Positions 252 to 53,426 of a stretch of 60,319 nt of DNA are shown piece after piece (position 1 is the stretch's first letter; the number at the start of each line of letters is the position of its first letter). The notes beneath the pieces are model-generated. The model saw only the letters and a list, made by a program, of their open reading frames with translations, ran no database searches and was not told the DNA's origin. A program made the position numbers and the translations under genes. The DNA is taken from IMG/VR virus record IMGVR_UViG_2870495154_000003, one strand, 5' to 3'. The DNA is from a virus. Taxonomy: Duplodnaviria; Heunggongvirae; Uroviricota; Caudoviricetes.

Positions 252-794
252 TTACTTGTCTTTATCCGACTGAAACTTATCAGGCACATTTCCGGTAGTT
301 TCCATCAGATAATCGGACAGCATTCGCGGGATGTTTTCATCAAGTTTTGTGCATGCGTTACAGGCTCTGACAACTTCTTTTTTCAGGCCATCCAGCATGG
401 CGGGGGTCATCTGTGGGAAGCTCCTTTGCATAGTAAGCGGCAGGCTGCCCATGATTGAAGAAATCTGACTCGCCAGTTTTGAAAGCGCATATATACAAAA
501 TTCCGTACTAATCACATCGCCGCGTTCGCGCTCGTTTTTAAGCTCCTGCGCCTCCGCCTGCGCTGTCAGCAATCTGATCCTGACTCGCAAAAGCTCATCA
601 TTATCAATCTCGCCTTTGTCGTCTGTAATCTGGTTAATTGCATTGCTAACCCGATTGTCTATTACGCTGGCAACATCATAAAACGCCTCGCGGCCTTTAC
701 GTTCAACGGGAGTCACTCCCCACTTGTCGAACGCTGTCGCACTTACACGGCAGCTTTGCGCCATGTTTTTTTTGTTCATCAGGTGCGATTTCAT
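252..794 (-). CDS. Terminase small subunit, lambda Nu1-like
   Basis: ORF 252..806 trimmed to the ATG at 792..794, which has a GGGGA SD 5 nt upstream (an ATG at 777..779 is an alternative). C-terminal half matches recalled lambda Nu1 (RLTxAQAxAQELKN..., FC, LPLxxQRxFP); the N-terminal DNA-binding region is diverged. Sits immediately downstream of a lambda-type cos. Confidence 0.8.
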   Translation of the reverse strand: MKSHLMNKKNMAQSCRVSATAFDKWGVTPVERKGREAFYDVASVIDNRVSNAINQITDDKGEIDNDELLRVRIRLLTAQAEAQELKNERERGDVISTEFCIYALSKLASQISSIMGSLPLTMQRSFPQMTPAMLDGLKKEVVRACNACTKLDENIPRMLSDYLMETTGNVPDKFQSDKDK

Positions 795-879
795 CAATAT
801 CCCCACTTAAGTAATGTTTCAGGTTGGTGTATTGGCTTTATCTTTTCCTTTTTATTCATAGAGATAGAGCGAACAACAA

Positions 880-995
880 AACCACCACCAGCACCCGAAA
901 AAGGCTCATAAATAGCGAAAACCCGCGAGGTCGCCGCCCCGTAACCTACCGGATCGCCGGAAAGGACCCGCCAGCCAGAACGGGCCCTAATTTCA
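880..995 (-). other. cos site region; cosN 12-nt cohesive-end sequence at 928..939
   Basis: Minus strand reads CGGGTCCTTTCCGGCGATCCGGTAGGTTACG-GGGCGGCGACCT-CGCGGGTTTTCGCTATTTATGA, matching recalled lambda cos (right end, cohesive end, left end) with a few substitutions in the cosQ-proximal part; sequence diverges beyond ~35 bp on the TerS side. Recurs in every copy (cosN at 11415, 21898, 32385, 42872, 53359). Confidence 0.8.
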
Positions 996-1379
996 TCAAC
1001 CAATCAACTTATAGCGACCATCCCGTGCATTGCGACGTACACGCTCAATCTTGAGGCATAGCGCCGCATCTGGCTTTTTTGGGACAGGTACGCGGCAATA
1101 TTCAGAAGCTCGAGGAATATTGTTTATCCAGTCGATCACTTCACTTAAATACCAGGCCTTACGCCCTTTCGTAACCTGTACGCGTTCGGGGAACTCTCCG
1201 CGAGCCTCAAGGTTTAGCAATGTGCGACGGCTAAGGGTAGTAAGTTCCATCACCTGATTCATATCAACAAGGCGTTCACTTAAACGCATTTTGTCAGCAA
1301 TAGCCTTTAATTCCTCTACTGCTGGATCCGGATACATCATTTCGGCAATTGGCTTAAGGTCATTGTAATGATTCTGCAT
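996..1379 (-). CDS. AlpA/Xis-like helix-turn-helix DNA-binding protein (127 aa)
   Basis: ORF with GGGGGA SD 5 nt upstream; central motif LTTLSRRTLLNLEARGEFPERVQVTKGRKAWYLSEVIDWI resembles AlpA-family HTH. Lies between the decoration gene and cos/TerS. Confidence 0.6.
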   Translation of the reverse strand: MQNHYNDLKPIAEMMYPDPAVEELKAIADKMRLSERLVDMNQVMELTTLSRRTLLNLEARGEFPERVQVTKGRKAWYLSEVIDWINNIPRASEYCRVPVPKKPDAALCLKIERVRRNARDGRYKLIG

Positions 1380-1390
1380 TGTATCCCCCT

Positions 1391-1732
1391 TTACACACGA
1401 GCCAGCGGCTGAACAGAAATACCTGAGCCAACAAACGCGGCAACCTTTGCCGACAGTTCTTTTACAGACTCAGGCCAGTTCAGAGCATCAACATTTAAAA
1501 CACCTGTCTTATAAACCTGTGCCTGTGTTTTTTTCGCTGTGTCGATTTGTACAGCGGAAACATAAACCGCTTTACCTACGCTCGAACCATCCCATACCAC
1601 CAGTGCACCTGTTGCATCTTCCTGCATCAGTGGCGTAAATGCAGGAATTACCCCTTTATTAGCTGAAAATATCCCCAGCGTAGTCACCAGTGCTTCAGTG
1701 CCAGCCATGAGTTCAGTGTAATGAGTAGCCAT
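1391..1732 (-). CDS. Head decoration protein, lambda gpD-like (113 aa)
   Basis: Collinear similarity to recalled lambda gpD (PAFTPLM / PAMTPLM, LVVWDG / LVAWDG, YKTG / YKSG, NWPE / LWPE, AFVGSGIS / AFAGTAIS). Starts 10 nt after the capsid gene stop. Confidence 0.75.
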   Translation of the reverse strand: MATHYTELMAGTEALVTTLGIFSANKGVIPAFTPLMQEDATGALVVWDGSSVGKAVYVSAVQIDTAKKTQAQVYKTGVLNVDALNWPESVKELSAKVAAFVGSGISVQPLARV

Positions 1733-1741
1733 TGCTCCCCC

Positions 1742-2788
1742 TTAGCCAATGCGAACGGTAACAAAACGATTGATGCGGGCCGGTATTGGCTGTGGTGCTG
1801 AATGTGTCTGCACATATTCAATAGCCGGATCACCAGGCACAATATAGTTTTTCGGTGCAAGTTCGGCTTTAGTCAGCCCCATTCGGATTAGCTCCGGATC
1901 CTGAATACCGCCATAGGCGACAATCCCCTGAAGAGCCGTATTGCCAAGCACCATCAAATCAGGATCAAGGAAATGTTTTTCTGTTCCGTCCTCGTCGGTA
2001 TAACGCCCGCTGTAAACAACAATCGCAACATCGCCCATATACCCTTTAAAACTCACCGAATCACCAAGGTCTTTAAGGGCCGTTTCCAGTTCGGAATTAG
2101 AACCACGACGGGTATCCAAAGCCTCTTTTATCGCTCTGAATGAACGGTATTTCTTCCATACATTACCACCCATAATGATGATATTAGTGACGCCCTCACT
2201 AAATTCTGCGTAGCTCTCAATATCATCATTTGGATCAAAAGTTTCTTTATCCTTACCTGACCACTCAGTACCGCCAGACTGAGTGATGATATTTTGTGGT
2301 TTTATATTCCAGTCCAGCTCATAACGTTCAATACCATCGCCCTCAATGATATTTTTCCCCGTTGTGATTGCCTGAACAGCAAGCCATTCAATACGTGCAC
2401 GAATAGCTTTAGCCTGATTTACAATCGCCTGTTTAACTTTAATATTACGCGCCCCAAAAGCATTGTATTGCTCAGGTGACACACCAGCAGGGCGCACAGC
2501 TAACTTATTTGGATCAATGCTGCTTTTCGGCTTCATATAACCTGGACGAATTGTTTTTGATTCGTATCCCTCATCTCGTGAAACTTTACTGCCCACCATA
2601 GGAGAGCAAAACGCCGCGATCGGGATATTTGGATCGTCGATCGTATCAAGAATAATGTCTCTCGATTCAAACATTACCGAGCGAGTGAAAAACAAACTGG
2701 TAAACAACGCATTTAATTTTTTTTGCACATCTTCAGCATTAGCCACCTGCACAAGCTGTGTAGGCGAATATAAATCAACCATACTCAT
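1742..2788 (-). CDS. Major capsid protein, lambda gpE-like (348 aa)
   Basis: ORF 1742..2869 trimmed to the ATG at 2786..2788 (MSMVDLY..., AAAGAGG SD adjacent; lambda E begins MSM). Motifs NIITQSGGTEWSGKDKETFDPNDDIESYA, DTRRGSNSELETALKDLG, GDVAIVVYSG, MVLGNT, QSAP match recalled lambda gpE. Confidence 0.85.
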   Translation of the reverse strand: MSMVDLYSPTQLVQVANAEDVQKKLNALFTSLFFTRSVMFESRDIILDTIDDPNIPIAAFCSPMVGSKVSRDEGYESKTIRPGYMKPKSSIDPNKLAVRPAGVSPEQYNAFGARNIKVKQAIVNQAKAIRARIEWLAVQAITTGKNIIEGDGIERYELDWNIKPQNIITQSGGTEWSGKDKETFDPNDDIESYAEFSEGVTNIIIMGGNVWKKYRSFRAIKEALDTRRGSNSELETALKDLGDSVSFKGYMGDVAIVVYSGRYTDEDGTEKHFLDPDLMVLGNTALQGIVAYGGIQDPELIRMGLTKAELAPKNYIVPGDPAIEYVQTHSAPQPIPARINRFVTVRIG

Positions 2789-6065: not shown

Positions 6066-6386
6066 TTATCCCCGATTTGAATCAGTATTCGCTTTCTTTA
6101 TGGCATTTAATGCATCTGTGGCATTTTCAATGGTGCACCGTAACGAAATATCAAACTGCCCAAGCATTGCCAGTAACAAGCCAATATTCCCCATGTCAAT
6201 GCGCATAGCCTTTTCGTCATATTCCTCATTTTCTGACGCATGCCACATCAGGCTACCAATTGACGCAACAGCCATTGATATATTGTCAGTAGCCCCATCC
6301 GCAGCGGAATAAACCTTTTTAGCAATATCATGCTCACAGTTAAAATGCGGATTAATCAGGTACTGGTAATTTGACATATCAGGCAT
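6066..6386 (-). CDS. Hypothetical protein (106 aa, [15 protein letters not shown]...)
   Basis: C-terminal part of ORF 6066..6821; the upstream part of that ORF is Pro/Arg/Leu-rich and looks off-frame. ATG at 6384..6386 overlaps the stop of the upstream ORF (ATGCCTGA). Confidence 0.45.
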
Positions 6387-6918
6387 GGCACACCCCCTGG
6401 CGAATACGGGCGGCGAATACAGCAACACAACCGGACGGGCAGCGGTTACGCGCTTCACGTTCCGTCCAGGCGGTGACGTGGATGATTTGATGGTCTGACG
6501 CGCCAAAGATGATAAAGCGCCAGAGAAAGGCGGTTTGAGAATGTACAAGGGTAGGGATAGTAGCCATGTTGGCAGCCTCCTTTGACAGTGAAGAATTTCC
6601 ACCGCAGGAAACGCCAATTTCGCTGGCGGTGGACTGAACGGGGTTGGCGTAACCGGCGTCAAAGGGAACCGGCGCTTCCGAAGAAGCCCCCGCCCAGCCC
6701 ACCATAACTTTGATGTGAGCGAATGCGGACGATAAAAAAGACGCTGGCGCGTCATATATCGCCTTTGACATTTCCAGGACGCCAATCCCGGCACCAGATT
6801 TTGCTGGTGCGGATAAATCATAGCCCTGGCTTGCAGTGGCGATCAACTGGTTTTTTACACCCGCTTTATTCAGGTTGTGCGAGTCCCGCCCTTGCGGGTG
6901 TGTGGTATGATTTCTCAT
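6379..6918 (-). CDS. Hypothetical Ala/Gly/Ser-rich protein (179 aa; alternative 62-aa start at 6567 with AGGAGG SD)
   Basis: 3' part of the 429-aa ORF 6379..7668; in-frame ATG at 6916..6918 with GAGG SD, just beyond the divergent operator region. Confidence 0.3.
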
Positions 6919-7015
6919 AGCGACCTCGATACTATCGTTATCGTTGGTGGTTAGAAGCCCCGTTACTGCTCCAACAGTGCGGGGTTTCGTCGTTTCTGCA
7001 CCTTGCATCAACAAG

Positions 7016-7067
7016 GTGTTGAACACCAATGTAAACTCAGGTGTTGAACACGTCAAGTGTTGAACAC
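7016..7067. promoter_or_regulatory. Operator-like array: three copies of the 11-bp palindrome GTGTTGAACAC
   Basis: Sites at 7016..7026, 7041..7051 and 7057..7067, in the ~200-bp divergent intergenic region between minus-strand ORF start 6918 and plus-strand ORF start 7118. Recurs in every copy. Confidence 0.6.
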
Positions 7068-7117
7068 TTGTTTTTTTTCCTGCATACTGCATTTGTTTTT
7101 TGTGAGGGGTACACAAC

Positions 7118-7297
7118 ATGGCGACAAAAGCAGTAAACGCAAAATCACAAACAGTTGCGGCAAGGGTTCCGCATGAAGTTATGAACAATGTTGAGGCGGT
7201 AAAAATGCCTGGTGAAAGTACAGGGCAATTTGTAACAGCAGCATTAAAGCGAGAAGTTGAATACCGCCAGCGACGCAAGGCTAAAGAGCAAGAATAA
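7118..7297 (+). CDS. Small ribbon-helix-helix-like DNA-binding protein (59 aa), putative regulator
   Basis: Not in the ORF track (below 60 aa). ATG at 7118 with GAGGGG SD 7 nt upstream; translation [59 protein letters not shown]; directly downstream of the palindromic operators. Confidence 0.55.
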
Positions 7298-7354
7298 TCA
7301 CTATCAGCGCTGTGGTGTGAGGTACTCCGGCGCATTGCTTTACAGGTCGGCACT

Positions 7355-7564
7355 ATGAGCAAAAAATACCTATCCACTGAAGAGATTTTCGCAGAACAAC
7401 GAAGATTGCTTTTACAGAGCATTGTTGCACGCCAGAAAGAAAAGGCACACGCTAAACAAATGCCACCAAATACAGAACCAGCGCCTACAAAATTTGCGCT
7501 TGATGAGTTTCTCAATAAACAGCCCCGGGTAATGAAAGCTAACAGGAACCGCCCACCAGGCTGA
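7355..7564 (+). CDS. Hypothetical protein (69 aa)
   Basis: ORF in track, co-oriented with the RHH gene and followed by a plus-strand terminator. Confidence 0.4.
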
Positions 7565-7628
7565 TCACATTGCCCACCAGCCAGCAAATCGCTATGATGG
7601 CTGGGCTTATGTTTAGTGTATTCCCACT

Positions 7629-7660
7629 GGCGACCTCTGATCCGGGTCGCCTTTGTTTTA
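7629..7660 (+). terminator. Rho-independent terminator (GGCGACC-tctgatccg-GGTCGCC followed by TTTGTTTTATG)
   Basis: Read directly from the sequence; sits between the convergent plus-strand ORFs and alpA. Confidence 0.6.
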
Positions 7661-7678
7661 TGTGTCATATGCCCCCCT

Positions 7679-11281: not shown

Positions 11282-11482
11282 CAATATCCCCACTTAAGTA
11301 ATGTTTCAGGTTGGTGTATTGGCTTTATCTTTTCCTTTTTATTCATAGAGATAGAGCGAACAACAAAACCACCACCAGCACCCGAAAAAGGCTCATAAAT
11401 AGCGAAAACCCGCGAGGTCGCCGCCCCGTAACCTACCGGATCGCCGGAAAGGACCCGCCAGCCAGAACGGGCCCTAATTTCA

Positions 11483-11877: not shown

Positions 11878-12217
11878 TTACACACGAGCCAGCGGCTGAA
11901 CAGAAATACCTGAGCCAACAAACGCGGCAACCTTTGCCGACAGTTCTTTTACAGACTCAGGCCAGTTCAGAGCATCAACATTTAAAACACCTGTCTTATA
12001 AACCTGTGCCTGTGTTTTTTTCGCTGTGTCGATTTGTACAGCGGAAACATAAACCGCTTTACCTACGCTCGAACCATCCCATACCACCAGTGCACCTGTT
12101 GCATCTTCCTGCATCAGTGGCGTAAATGCAGGAATTACCCTTTATTAGCTGAAAATATCCCAGCGTAGTCACCAGTGCTTCAGTGCCAGCCATGAGTTCA
12201 GTGTAATGAGTAGCCAT
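11878..12217 (-). pseudogene. gpD-like decoration gene, frameshifted in copy B
   Basis: Two 1-bp deletions in C-runs (near 12139 and 12160) relative to other copies; the track shows only a 78-aa ORF 11878..12114. Confidence 0.6.
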
Positions 12218-12225
12218 TGCTCCCC

Positions 12226-13271
12226 TTAGCCAATGCGAACGGTAACAAAACGATTGATGCGGGCCGGTATTGGCTGTGGTGCTGAATGTGTCTGCACATA
12301 TTCAATAGCCGGATCACCAGGCACAATATAGTTTTTCGGTGCAAGTTCGGCTTTAGTCAGCCCCATTCGGATTAGCTCCGGATCCTGAATACCGCCATAG
12401 GCGACAATCCCTGAAGAGCCGTATTGCCAAGCACCATCAAATCAGGATCAAGGAAATGTTTTTCTGTTCCGTCCTCGTCGGTATAACGCCCGCTGTAAAC
12501 AACAATCGCAACATCGCCCATATACCCTTTAAAACTCACCGAATCACCAAGGTCTTTAAGGGCCGTTTCCAGTTCGGAATTAGAACCACGACGGGTATCC
12601 AAAGCCTCTTTTATCGCTCTGAATGAACGGTATTTCTTCCATACATTACCACCCATAATGATGATATTAGTGACGCCCTCACTAAATTCTGCGTAGCTCT
12701 CAATATCATCATTTGGATCAAAAGTTTCTTTATCCTTACCTGACCACTCAGTACCGCCAGACTGAGTGATGATATTTTGTGGTTTTATATTCCAGTCCAG
12801 CTCATAACGTTCAATACCATCGCCCTCAATGATATTTTTCCCCGTTGTGATTGCCTGAACAGCAAGCCATTCAATACGTGCACGAATAGCTTTAGCCTGA
12901 TTTACAATCGCCTGTTTAACTTTAATATTACGCGCCCCAAAAGCATTGTATTGCTCAGGTGACACACCAGCAGGGCGCACAGCTAACTTATTTGGATCAA
13001 TGCTGCTTTTCGGCTTCATATAACCTGGACGAATTGTTTTTGATTCGTATCCCTCATCTCGTGAAACTTTACTGCCCACCATAGGAGAGCAAAACGCCGC
13101 GATCGGGATATTTGGATCGTCGATCGTATCAAGAATAATGTCTCTCGATTCAAACATTACCGAGCGAGTGAAAAACAAACTGGTAAACAACGCATTTAAT
13201 TTTTTTTGCACATCTTCAGCATTAGCCACCTGCACAAGCTGTGTAGGCGAATATAAATCAACCATACTCAT
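12226..13271 (-). pseudogene. gpE-like major capsid gene, frameshifted near its 3' end in copy B
   Basis: 1-bp deletion in a C-run near 12419; ORF 12372..13352 has an altered C-terminus (...ALQGLSPMAVFRIRS) versus other copies. Confidence 0.6.
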
Positions 13272-21764: not shown

Positions 21765-21965
21765 CAATATCCCCACTTAAGTAATGTTTCAGGTTGGTGT
21801 ATTGGCTTTATCTTTTCCTTTTTATTCATAGAGATAGAGCGAACAACAAAACCACCACCAGCACCCGAAAAAGGCTCATAAATAGCGAAAACCCGCGAGG
21901 TCGCCGCCCCGTAACCTACCGGATCGCCGGAAAGGACCCGCCAGCCAGAACGGGCCCTAATTTCA

Positions 21966-32251: not shown

Positions 32252-32452
32252 CAATATCCCCACTTAAGTAATGTTTCAGGTTGGTGTATTGGCTTTATCT
32301 TTTCCTTTTTATTCATAGAGATAGAGCGAACAACAAAACCACCACCAGCACCCGAAAAAGGCTCATAAATAGCGAAAACCCGCGAGGTCGCCGCCCCGTA
32401 ACCTACCGGATCGCCGGAAAGGACCCGCCAGCCAGAACGGGCCCTAATTTCA

Positions 32453-35121: not shown

Positions 35122-35409
35122 AGGCTTTATCTCACAGCAGTAAATTAAAATTTTTGCGTTTTAACCCTTCACCTGTTCACCTTTTGATATTTTATCTTTT
35201 AATTCATAATGTTAAGGGGTGAACAGTTTCACAAAAAACTATTCACCAACTGTTCACCACTGTTCACCCTTGAAGCTCAATAAACAATCAAAAAGGTGAA
35301 CAGTGAATAGTTTGGTGAACAGTTCATAAATAACTGTTCACCCTATAACATACTGATACAAAAGATATTTATGACAGGGTGAACAGTGGTGAACAGTTAT
35401 TCCATAAGT

Positions 35410-42738: not shown

Positions 42739-42939
42739 CAATATCCCCACTTAAGTAATGTTTCAGGTTGGTGTATTGGCTTTATCTTTTCCTTTTTATT
42801 CATAGAGATAGAGCGAACAACAAAACCACCACCAGCACCCGAAAAAGGCTCATAAATAGCGAAAACCCGCGAGGTCGCCGCCCCGTAACCTACCGGATCG
42901 CCGGAAAGGACCCGCCAGCCAGAACGGGCCCTAATTTCA

Positions 42940-53225: not shown

Positions 53226-53426
53226 CAATATCCCCACTTAAGTAATGTTTCAGGTTGGTGTATTGGCTTTATCTTTTCCTTTTTATTCATAGAGATAGAG
53301 CGAACAACAAAACCACCACCAGCACCCGAAAAAGGCTCATAAATAGCGAAAACCCGCGAGGTCGCCGCCCCGTAACCTACCGGATCGCCGGAAAGGACCC
53401 GCCAGCCAGAACGGGCCCTAATTTCA

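Follow-up and report, generated by a model that had tools for sequence, protein, structure and literature searches.

That PICIs exchange cosB but retain cosN and cosQ is an already published principle (2018 to 2022), which our analysis leaves unchanged. In EcCICFT073, cosQ and cosN are lambda-like, while the unrelated cosB is read by a heterodimer of Rpp and the small terminase (TerS) of the helper phage (PMC6092414, PMC6739421, PMC9026076). Rpp proteins are 135 to 153 aa long and lack the C-terminal region that binds the large terminase (TerL); the reported packaging length of EcCICFT073 is that of the phage. Islands that encode TerS have been described as well, among them EcCIIHE3034, which measures 10.5 kb, resides at cspD-clpS, and encodes a 412-aa integrase (PMC6092414, Fillol-Salom et al. 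2018), but neither EcCIIHE3034 nor EcCI18098, a second TerS-encoding island, was transferred after mitomycin induction of the resident prophages (PMC6092414). Our literature search found no description of the cos site or packaging mechanism of these two islands and no paper on packaging by TerS-type lambda-cos E. coli PICIs.

The locus analyzed here belongs to this second kind of island. Its combination of a self-encoded, mosaic, full-length TerS with a cosB of the N15/Monarch class, in the slot taken by Rpp in the studied islands, appears to be undescribed. If our interpretation is true, E. coli cos-type satellites have two interchangeable routes for stealing a lambda-type terminase, namely Rpp, which needs the helper TerS, and a self-sufficient mosaic TerS.

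The satellite and its tandem array

The stretch of DNA under study (the window; 60,319 bp, IMG/VR record IMGVR_UViG_2870495154_000003) consists of 5.75 head-to-tail copies of a 10,487-bp unit, as read from the period of its open reading frame (ORF) table. The copies are identical save for six single-base indels. Four of these, at 12137-12408, shift the reading frame of the decoration and capsid genes in copy 2; the other two lie at 35233 and 39129. The window matches the chromosome of E. coli CREC-629 (NZ_CP024815) at 100%, and six copies fill the clpS-cspD interval there; this array may be real or may have been assembled from replicating concatemers.

All genes of the unit share one orientation. 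Their products comprise a tyrosine integrase of 412 aa, two regulators of the AlpA family, Ash/Icd-like proteins, a DUF4222 protein, a primase-helicase of the D5 type, an SSB, a major capsid protein resembling gpE, and a decoration protein resembling gpD; the cos site comes next, and then the gene for a 180-aa TerS. On the minus strand, an AlpA-family HTH gene (996..1379; PF05930, phrog_2790) lies directly upstream of cos, and the genes for the gpD-like head decoration protein (1391..1732) and the gpE-like major capsid protein (1742..2782) belong to the same module as c1500/c1499 of EcCICFT073 (PMC6092414). Since large terminase, portal, and tail genes are absent from the ORFs of the 10.5-kb unit, the element is a phage satellite (PICI) of the EcCIIHE3034 type and not a prophage. 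Its integrase, AlpA regulators, primase, and size of about 10 kb are those of a PICI, and, as in SaPIs, a TerS homolog is encoded without a TerL. The cos of an ordinary lambdoid prophage, which we also considered, is ruled out by a 10.5-kb repeat unit of this content.

The gpE-like capsid protein has 346 aa in the RefSeq annotation, and portal, protease, and scaffold genes are absent from the satellite. Deletions of the EcCICFT073 homologs c1499 and c1500 have been built and assayed for lambda interference, and PICI capsid genes are reported to be dispensable for helper-assisted transfer (PMC10111431). At 6066..7668, the window contains two long overlapping minus-strand ORFs of 251 aa and 429 aa, where RefSeq instead has several short genes, for an Icd-like and a hypothetical protein and, on the opposite strand, for YlcI/YnfO; the Ash-family match is limited to the C-terminal part of the 429-aa ORF, and the two long ORFs are probably not genes.

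Compared with EcCICFT073, as characterized with its cos1 and RppA (Fillol-Salom 2018/2019; Murialdo & Feiss 2022), the element has the same gene order (capsid, decoration, small gene, cos, packaging-specificity gene, small ORF, att end), a similar size (~10 kb), a lambda-type cosQ and cosN, and, by prediction, a cosB unlike that of its helper and a reliance on a lambda-like helper. It differs in having TerS in the slot where EcCICFT073 has rppA, and in carrying one cos per satellite unit, whereas EcCICFT073 has two inverted cos sites; a second, inverted cos was not found within the unit. The resemblance to EcCIIHE3034 and EcCI18098 extends to the cspD-clpS site, the length of 10.5 kb, the 412-aa integrase, and the R3 and R2-like elements discussed below. 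However, the relation of these islands to our element is mosaic, with only parts aligning, at 81 to 96%. Between the IHE3034 island and the window, the cos-terS module is 86.6% identical in nucleotide sequence, and TerS is identical at 147 of 180 aa.

A blastn search with cos plus terS found the module at a coverage of at least 80% in 762 of 5,426 complete E. coli genomes (~14%), among them O157:H7 strains and ExPEC strains such as IHE3034. Hundreds of genomes retain an intact terS beside cos, and some loci in the same search match through +121 (counted from the first cohesive-end base) without a terS match. With this frequency, the module could influence island mobility and interference with lambdoid phages, including Stx phages.

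The cos site: lambda-like core and cosB side

In an ungapped comparison with the ends of NC_001416, anchored on the cohesive end, the minus-strand segment 906..969 shares 61 of 64 positions with the lambda cos junction. Identity is 27/30 from -30 to -1, with all three substitutions between cosQ and cosN, and 34/34 from +1 to +34; divergence starts at +35. The cosQ heptamer GGGTCCT (963..969, minus strand; -30..-24 from the first cohesive-end base) is the same as in lambda and lies, as expected of a lambda-type site, about 30 bp upstream of cosN; this 7-bp element is highly conserved across lambda-like phages (PMC4669245). The partly symmetric cosN (923..944, minus strand; -5..+17) is also the same as in lambda and holds the lambda-type 12-nt 5' cohesive-end sequence GGGCGGCGACCT at 939..928. 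The last lambda-identical stretch is the I2-equivalent segment (906..922, minus strand; +18..+34), which agrees with lambda at 17/17 positions; I2 is conserved among lambda, 21, and N15 (PMC4669245).

There is one cos per 10,487-bp unit, the cohesive-end sequence recurring on the minus strand at 11415..11426 in copy 2 and at 21898-21909, 32385-32396, 42872-42883, and 53359-53370 in the remaining ones. The 24-mer CTCGCGGGTTTTCGCTATTTATGA, taken from the lambda-like core, occurs 6 times in the window and 0 times in 100 shuffles, so the match to lambda is not due to chance. In a blastn comparison with 50,697 phage records, only window positions 894..971 aligned, at 90 to 92% identity, to lambdoid phages. 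With its lambda cosQ and cosN, the site is a cos and not a pac site for headful packaging, and a scan for promoters and terminators near cos gave nothing over shuffle expectation.

These results bear out the first-pass annotation, which had recognized the 12-nt lambda cohesive end at 928..939 on the minus strand and the lambda-like sequence on both of its flanks, with a few substitutions on the cosQ-proximal side; the alignment to lambda cos that it called for revealed a cosN match that is neither short nor mismatched. It was also right that the distance from cos to the start codon is shorter than in lambda, the TerS ATG being located at +146 (window 794) and that of lambda Nu1 at +191. Its statement that the sequence diverges completely about 35 bp into the TerS-proximal side holds for lambda, as only scattered lambda matches occur past +34 and neither the lambda I1 nor the lambda R3, R2, and R1 sequences were found in the satellite cosB. 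Beyond lambda the statement fails, since the satellite cosB is ~80% identical through +121 to that of a Monarch-type lambdoid prophage in strain 357900. This locus is a complete lambdoid prophage with the "Monarch" architecture of Feiss et al. 2015, and the N-terminal domain of its TerS is common to the satellite TerS.

Four cos regions were aligned and then scanned for the R3 motif. In the satellite, a candidate TerS binding site equivalent to R3 (874..892, minus strand; +48..+66) occupies the position of R3 in lambda and N15, with its core GGTGGTGGTTT at 889..879 (minus strand; +51..+61). It is followed by an A/T-rich spacer (837..873, minus strand), a candidate bend or IHF region that matches I1 of the lambda/Monarch cosB in position (PMC4669245) and in which we found, by eye, no convincing IHF consensus. 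An inverted R2-like element, CAATACACCAACCTGA, is placed beyond the spacer at 821..836 (minus strand; +104..+119). For comparison, the cosB of N15 has R3 GGTTGTTGTTT at +50, a remote copy of the inverted R2 at +248, and no R1, and that of the strain 357900 prophage has GGTTGTTGTTT at +51, an exact copy of the inverted R2 at +108, and R1 at +176. The satellite cosB lacks R1 because the ATG falls at +146. The positional counterpart of its R2-like element is the exact inverted R2 ACACAACAACC, located at +108 in the Monarch-type prophage L003, and it is on this positional homology and on conservation that the assignment is based: the candidate element agrees with the window's own R3 at only 10/15 positions. 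It also went undetected in the search for short repeats as TerS sites that the first-pass annotation had suggested, which returned zero direct or inverted repeats in 790..945.

From this comparison, the satellite cosB (~821..892) is best described as a shortened variant of the N15/Monarch class and not as a sequence without relatives. The distance of R3 from cosN, the period-3 GGT motif, and the TerS recognition region xxAFDKWGV are as in N15/Monarch, and the inverted R2-like element ~57 bp downstream of R3 is as in Monarch. Of the Monarch (R3-I1-R2-R1) and N15 (a single R3 plus a remote rR2) architectures, the satellite has R3 and the conserved inverted R2-like element, without R1. While the N15/Monarch R3 is GGTTGTTGTT at about bp 48-60, the satellite has the same position and period but reads GGTGGTGGTT, with two T-to-G changes, that is, GGTGGTGGT versus GGTTGTTGT. 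The TerS proteins also differ, with AT/VT in the recognition helix of the satellite protein versus VQ and a C-terminal half that is not phage-type.

By the same motif comparison, a cosB of this class is not unique to the satellite, since phage-type contigs have the same R3. Two loci combine the GGTGGTGGT R3 class with a phage-type TerS C terminus, one of them on a 55-kb contig (L089), and the specificity thus exists in phages too. EcCICFT073 is different, its cos1 having the R3 core ACCACCACC at +55..+63 versus GGTGGTGGT at +51..+59 in the satellite. This proposed Rpp-type core (L015 2613..2621) is the reverse complement of GGTGGTGGT (window 881..889) with a 4-bp offset; the recognition proteins of the two sites are only ~16% identical, and the match may be a coincidence.

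The satellite TerS and its co-variation with cosB

The gene next to cos (252..794, minus strand) encodes a full-length, 180-aa small terminase of the Nu1 family (Pfam Phage_Nu1; phrog_57 over the full length), which aligns over its full length with lambda Nu1 at 35% identity (E = 1e-33); in the phage collection its best match is N15 gp1, at 45.7%. Satellite and phage TerS proteins were aligned, and identities were scored segment by segment. The DNA-binding domain is 53% identical to those of N15 gp1 and the Monarch-type prophage TerS and 33% identical to that of lambda Nu1, and its recognition helix reads SATAFDKWGV versus SVQAFDKWGV in N15. The C-terminal half, in contrast to the phage-like N terminus, is at most 52% identical to any of the 50,697 phage records and 93 to 100% identical to that of another satellite TerS, P0101, which comes from an island adjoining phoQ and is paired with a 21-like cosB. 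The N-terminal 112 aa of P0101 (L010 6001-6585) are 92% identical to the phage-21-type TerS of CFT073 prophage 4 (L015 39933-40481). As far as these alignments tell, the satellite TerS is a mosaic of an N15-like DNA-binding domain at its N terminus and a satellite-specific C-terminal half. Because this half is common to the window TerS and P0101, while their N termini are of different phage types, satellites seem to swap DNA-binding domains together with the cognate cosB. CFT073 prophage 4 is the known helper of EcCICFT073. The cohesive end of the P0101 locus has one substitution, GGGCGTCGACCT, and the P0101 C-terminal half is 97% identical to that of the window TerS.

The satellite protein ends in the tail LDENIPRMLSDYLMETTG followed by a 13-aa extension; the tail is ~41% identical to the lambda/N15 tail and 22% identical to 21-type and Monarch-type tails. 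In lambda-like phages the C-terminal region of TerS binds the TerL N terminus, and the TerL N termini of the phages compared here differ in exactly the TerS-binding stretch. Like the lambda-N15 hy4 and lambda-21 hybrids (PMC4669245, PMC9026076), the satellite TerS would join a DNA-binding domain of one specificity to a C terminus working with lambda-type TerL. Those hybrids are laboratory constructs, however, whereas the satellite swaps are natural and satellite-borne, and the constant part in the satellites is their own C-terminal half with its 13-aa extension.

Neither RppC nor the DNA-binding domain of lambda Nu1 came up, at E <= 10, in a sequence search of the PDB with the satellite TerS. 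The AlphaFold model, of moderate confidence (pLDDT 73), has the N-terminal order strand-helix-helix-strand-helix, and a Foldseek search of the PDB with this model gave no significant match. As the fold search was uninformative, the winged-helix prediction is based on the succession of secondary-structure elements and on the homology with Nu1 and N15 gp1. Membership of the satellite TerS in the Rpp family was considered and ruled out, as it is a full-length Nu1 homolog of 180 aa, compared with 135 to 153 aa for Rpp, and is only 14 to 19% identical to RppA in every segment; an adjacent rpp gene (135 to 153 aa, winged HTH, no TerL-binding C terminus) is not what the satellite carries.

With the satellite TerS alignment as query, IMG/VR yielded 80 loci. 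Of these, ~70 have the same R3 core, R2-like element, and ATG position (+146), while the cohesive-end sequence varies in its right half, at +6..+12, with GGGCGGCGACCT, GGGCGTCGACCT, GGGCGGCTGACG, GGGCGTCAGGCG, GGGCGGAAGGCG, and GGGCGGAGACCT all present. In fourteen of the IMG/VR loci L017-L096, the cosQ heptamer GGGTCCT is replaced by GGGGCCT. Averaged over the pairs among 50 distinct satellite cos regions, identity is 99.4% in cosQ, 89.7% in cosN, 96.2% in I2 (16/17 columns invariant), 94.7% in R3, and 90.9% in the R2-like element, compared with 87% in the spacer from R3 to the R2-like element, 67.6% between cosQ and cosN, and 46.7% upstream of cosQ. Hence there is hardly any variation in cosQ, in the left half of cosN, or in I2 while the flanks drift, a conservation footprint that coincides with the predicted functional sub-sites.

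The type of cosB co-varies with the DNA-binding domain of the neighboring satellite TerS. The helix xTAFDKW is found with R3 GGTGGTGGT at 79 loci, VQAFDKW with GGTTGTTGT at 4 loci, and the 21-type helix PRTIERW with a 21-like site at 3 loci. The helix motif tracks the R3 type with zero exceptions, in locus counts that are not phylogenetically independent. This natural variation, in which helix Q versus T is paired with GGTTGTTGT versus GGTGGTGGT, should be useful for dissecting TerS-R3 recognition.

A packaging model, likely helpers, and competing explanations

We consider it likely that the cosB of the satellite is a binding site for its own TerS and that this TerS recruits the helper TerL to the shared cosN. 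In this model, the retention of a lambda-like cosQ, cosN, and I2 (906..969) would allow a lambda-type gpA supplied by the helper to nick 12 bp apart at 928/939 and to terminate at the next cos on a satellite concatemer. The satellite TerS would read the N15/Monarch-class cosB through its N15-like winged-helix N-terminal domain, and its satellite-specific C-terminal half would recruit the helper TerL by means of a tail, LDENIPRMLSDYLMETTG, that resembles the lambda/N15 tail. From sequence comparison we infer that the satellite TerS binds DNA and recruits TerL, that this cos is cleaved, and that satellite DNA is packaged; published phage genetics provides precedents. DNA with the N15 cosB is not packaged by the lambda or 21 terminases, a laboratory TerS chimera with N15 specificity functions with lambda TerL, and termination is independent of cosB (PMC4669245). 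As lambda-type TerS does not use an N15-type cosB, initiation of packaging on satellite DNA would depend on the satellite TerS. The terminase with N15 specificity packages DNA of lambda as well (PMC4669245), and for this reason the satellite TerS may fail to discriminate against DNA of the helper.

Packaging would probably proceed as four-unit multimers of 41.9 kb (41,948 bp) in full-size heads, unless the gpE/gpD homologs alter head size. The capacity of the lambda head is about 38 to 51 kb, and four units would fill it. In pairing its own small terminase with a helper large terminase and directing it to the satellite's packaging site, the element would be analogous to the pac-type staphylococcal PICIs; SaPIs, however, use pac sites and headful packaging, whereas our element has a cos site with defined cohesive ends and a nicking site in common with the helper.

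Satellites embedded in prophages, a configuration of helper and PICI that is on record in the literature, indicate what the helper might be. In E. coli Ch1, the portal gene of a prophage harbors an inserted satellite with exactly the cosB of the window (L016 10225-22723). The prophage cos has the lambda R3, R2, and R1 elements, its TerS, NohD, is ~99% identical to lambda Nu1, and its TerL N terminus matches lambda gpA. The same pairing occurs on a 50.6-kb IMG/VR prophage contig, where Nu1 is identical to that of lambda at 179/181 positions and where, in a direct alignment, the satellite and prophage cos have only a 66-bp core in common. A cosQ and cosN like the helper's are thus combined with a cosB unlike the helper's in two natural satellite-in-prophage pairs, and since both embedded copies reside in phages with a lambda-type cosB and Nu1, the satellite cosB differs from that of the likely helper. 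A close relative in a Scandinavium genome is inserted in the major capsid gene of a lambdoid prophage (L014 6753-7517); its cosN is different, but R3 is again GGTGGTGGT. Its insertion in a prophage late gene, like that in the Ch1 portal gene, fits the published helper-embedded configuration.

The first-pass annotation had proposed that the element keeps a nicking site cut by a lambdoid TerL and exchanges the TerS recognition elements. The conservation of sub-sites, the co-variation of cosB with TerS, and the two natural pairs all favor this reading, to which we add a point that was absent from it, namely that the recognition protein would be the satellite's own full-length TerS. It could instead be the helper TerS that reads the satellite cos, with Monarch/N15-class helpers recognizing GGTGGTGGT/GGTTGTTGT-type R3 sites, the satellite mimicking a whole helper cos, and the satellite TerS mainly interfering through TerL titration or competition with the phage cos. 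Such a role for the helper would agree with the ~80% identity through +121 to the Monarch-type prophage cosB, the similar DNA-binding domain of the TerS encoded there, the phage-type TerS with the same R3 class on the 55-kb contig, and the view that some PICIs (11capE) have the helper's cos outright (PMC10111431). We nevertheless regard it as unlikely, because the helper has a lambda-type cosB and Nu1, not Monarch-type ones, in both embedded pairs, because the satellite R3 departs from the Monarch/N15 R3 at two positions that track the change in the recognition helix, and because an intact satellite terS is retained at a fixed spacing from cos in ~70 loci.

The position of the gene in the rppA slot of EcCICFT073, together with the Nu1-like winged-helix domain that Rpp likewise has (PMC6739421, PMC9026076), raises the question of whether the satellite TerS works as Rpp does, by heterodimerizing with the helper TerS through the DNA-binding domains, retargeting the complex to the satellite cosB, and blocking recognition of the phage cosB, while the helper TerS brings TerL. 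The low identity to RppA in every segment and the full length of the satellite TerS make this quite improbable: its Nu1-like C-terminal region and tail, which Rpp lacks, suggest that a heterodimer partner is not needed to reach TerL. That the site is a functionless, decaying remnant of a lambdoid prophage cos seems very improbable to us, even though related TerS-type islands were not mobilized in the sole published test (PMC6092414), for conservation falls exactly on the functional sub-sites, with flanks at 47 to 68%, the adjacent terS stays intact across hundreds of genomes, and the element is a compact 10.5-kb PICI and not a degraded prophage. For the model in which the satellite TerS acts on its own cosB, the same published negative result is a counter-argument, as are the phage-type contigs with the same R3 class (L089), since some helpers could read the satellite cosB themselves.

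A more general and more tentative proposal, which we rate as somewhat short of an even chance, is that of a plug-and-play TerS. In this scenario, a constant satellite C-terminal half would serve oligomerization and TerL capture, and phage-derived DNA-binding domains would be swapped together with their cognate cosB, either N15/Monarch-like or 21-like. The resulting specificity would be orthogonal to that of a lambda-type helper and independent of the helper TerS, providing a second solution, different from Rpp, for the same genomic slot. Tandem chromosomal arrays, in which cos recurs every 10.5 kb, could also be packaged in situ as four-unit lengths. Such cos/TerS pairs would offer orthogonal parts for engineered transducing particles.

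In satellites adjoining phoQ, about 1 kb comprising cos1-terS-cos2 lies between inverted cos repeats of ~80 bp, and this segment is found in either orientation with respect to the remainder of the island (L012 5784-6807 versus L013 5784-6807). EcCICFT073 likewise has inverted cos1 and cos2 around rppA. The inverted cos repeats and the occurrence of both orientations suggest an invertible packaging cassette.
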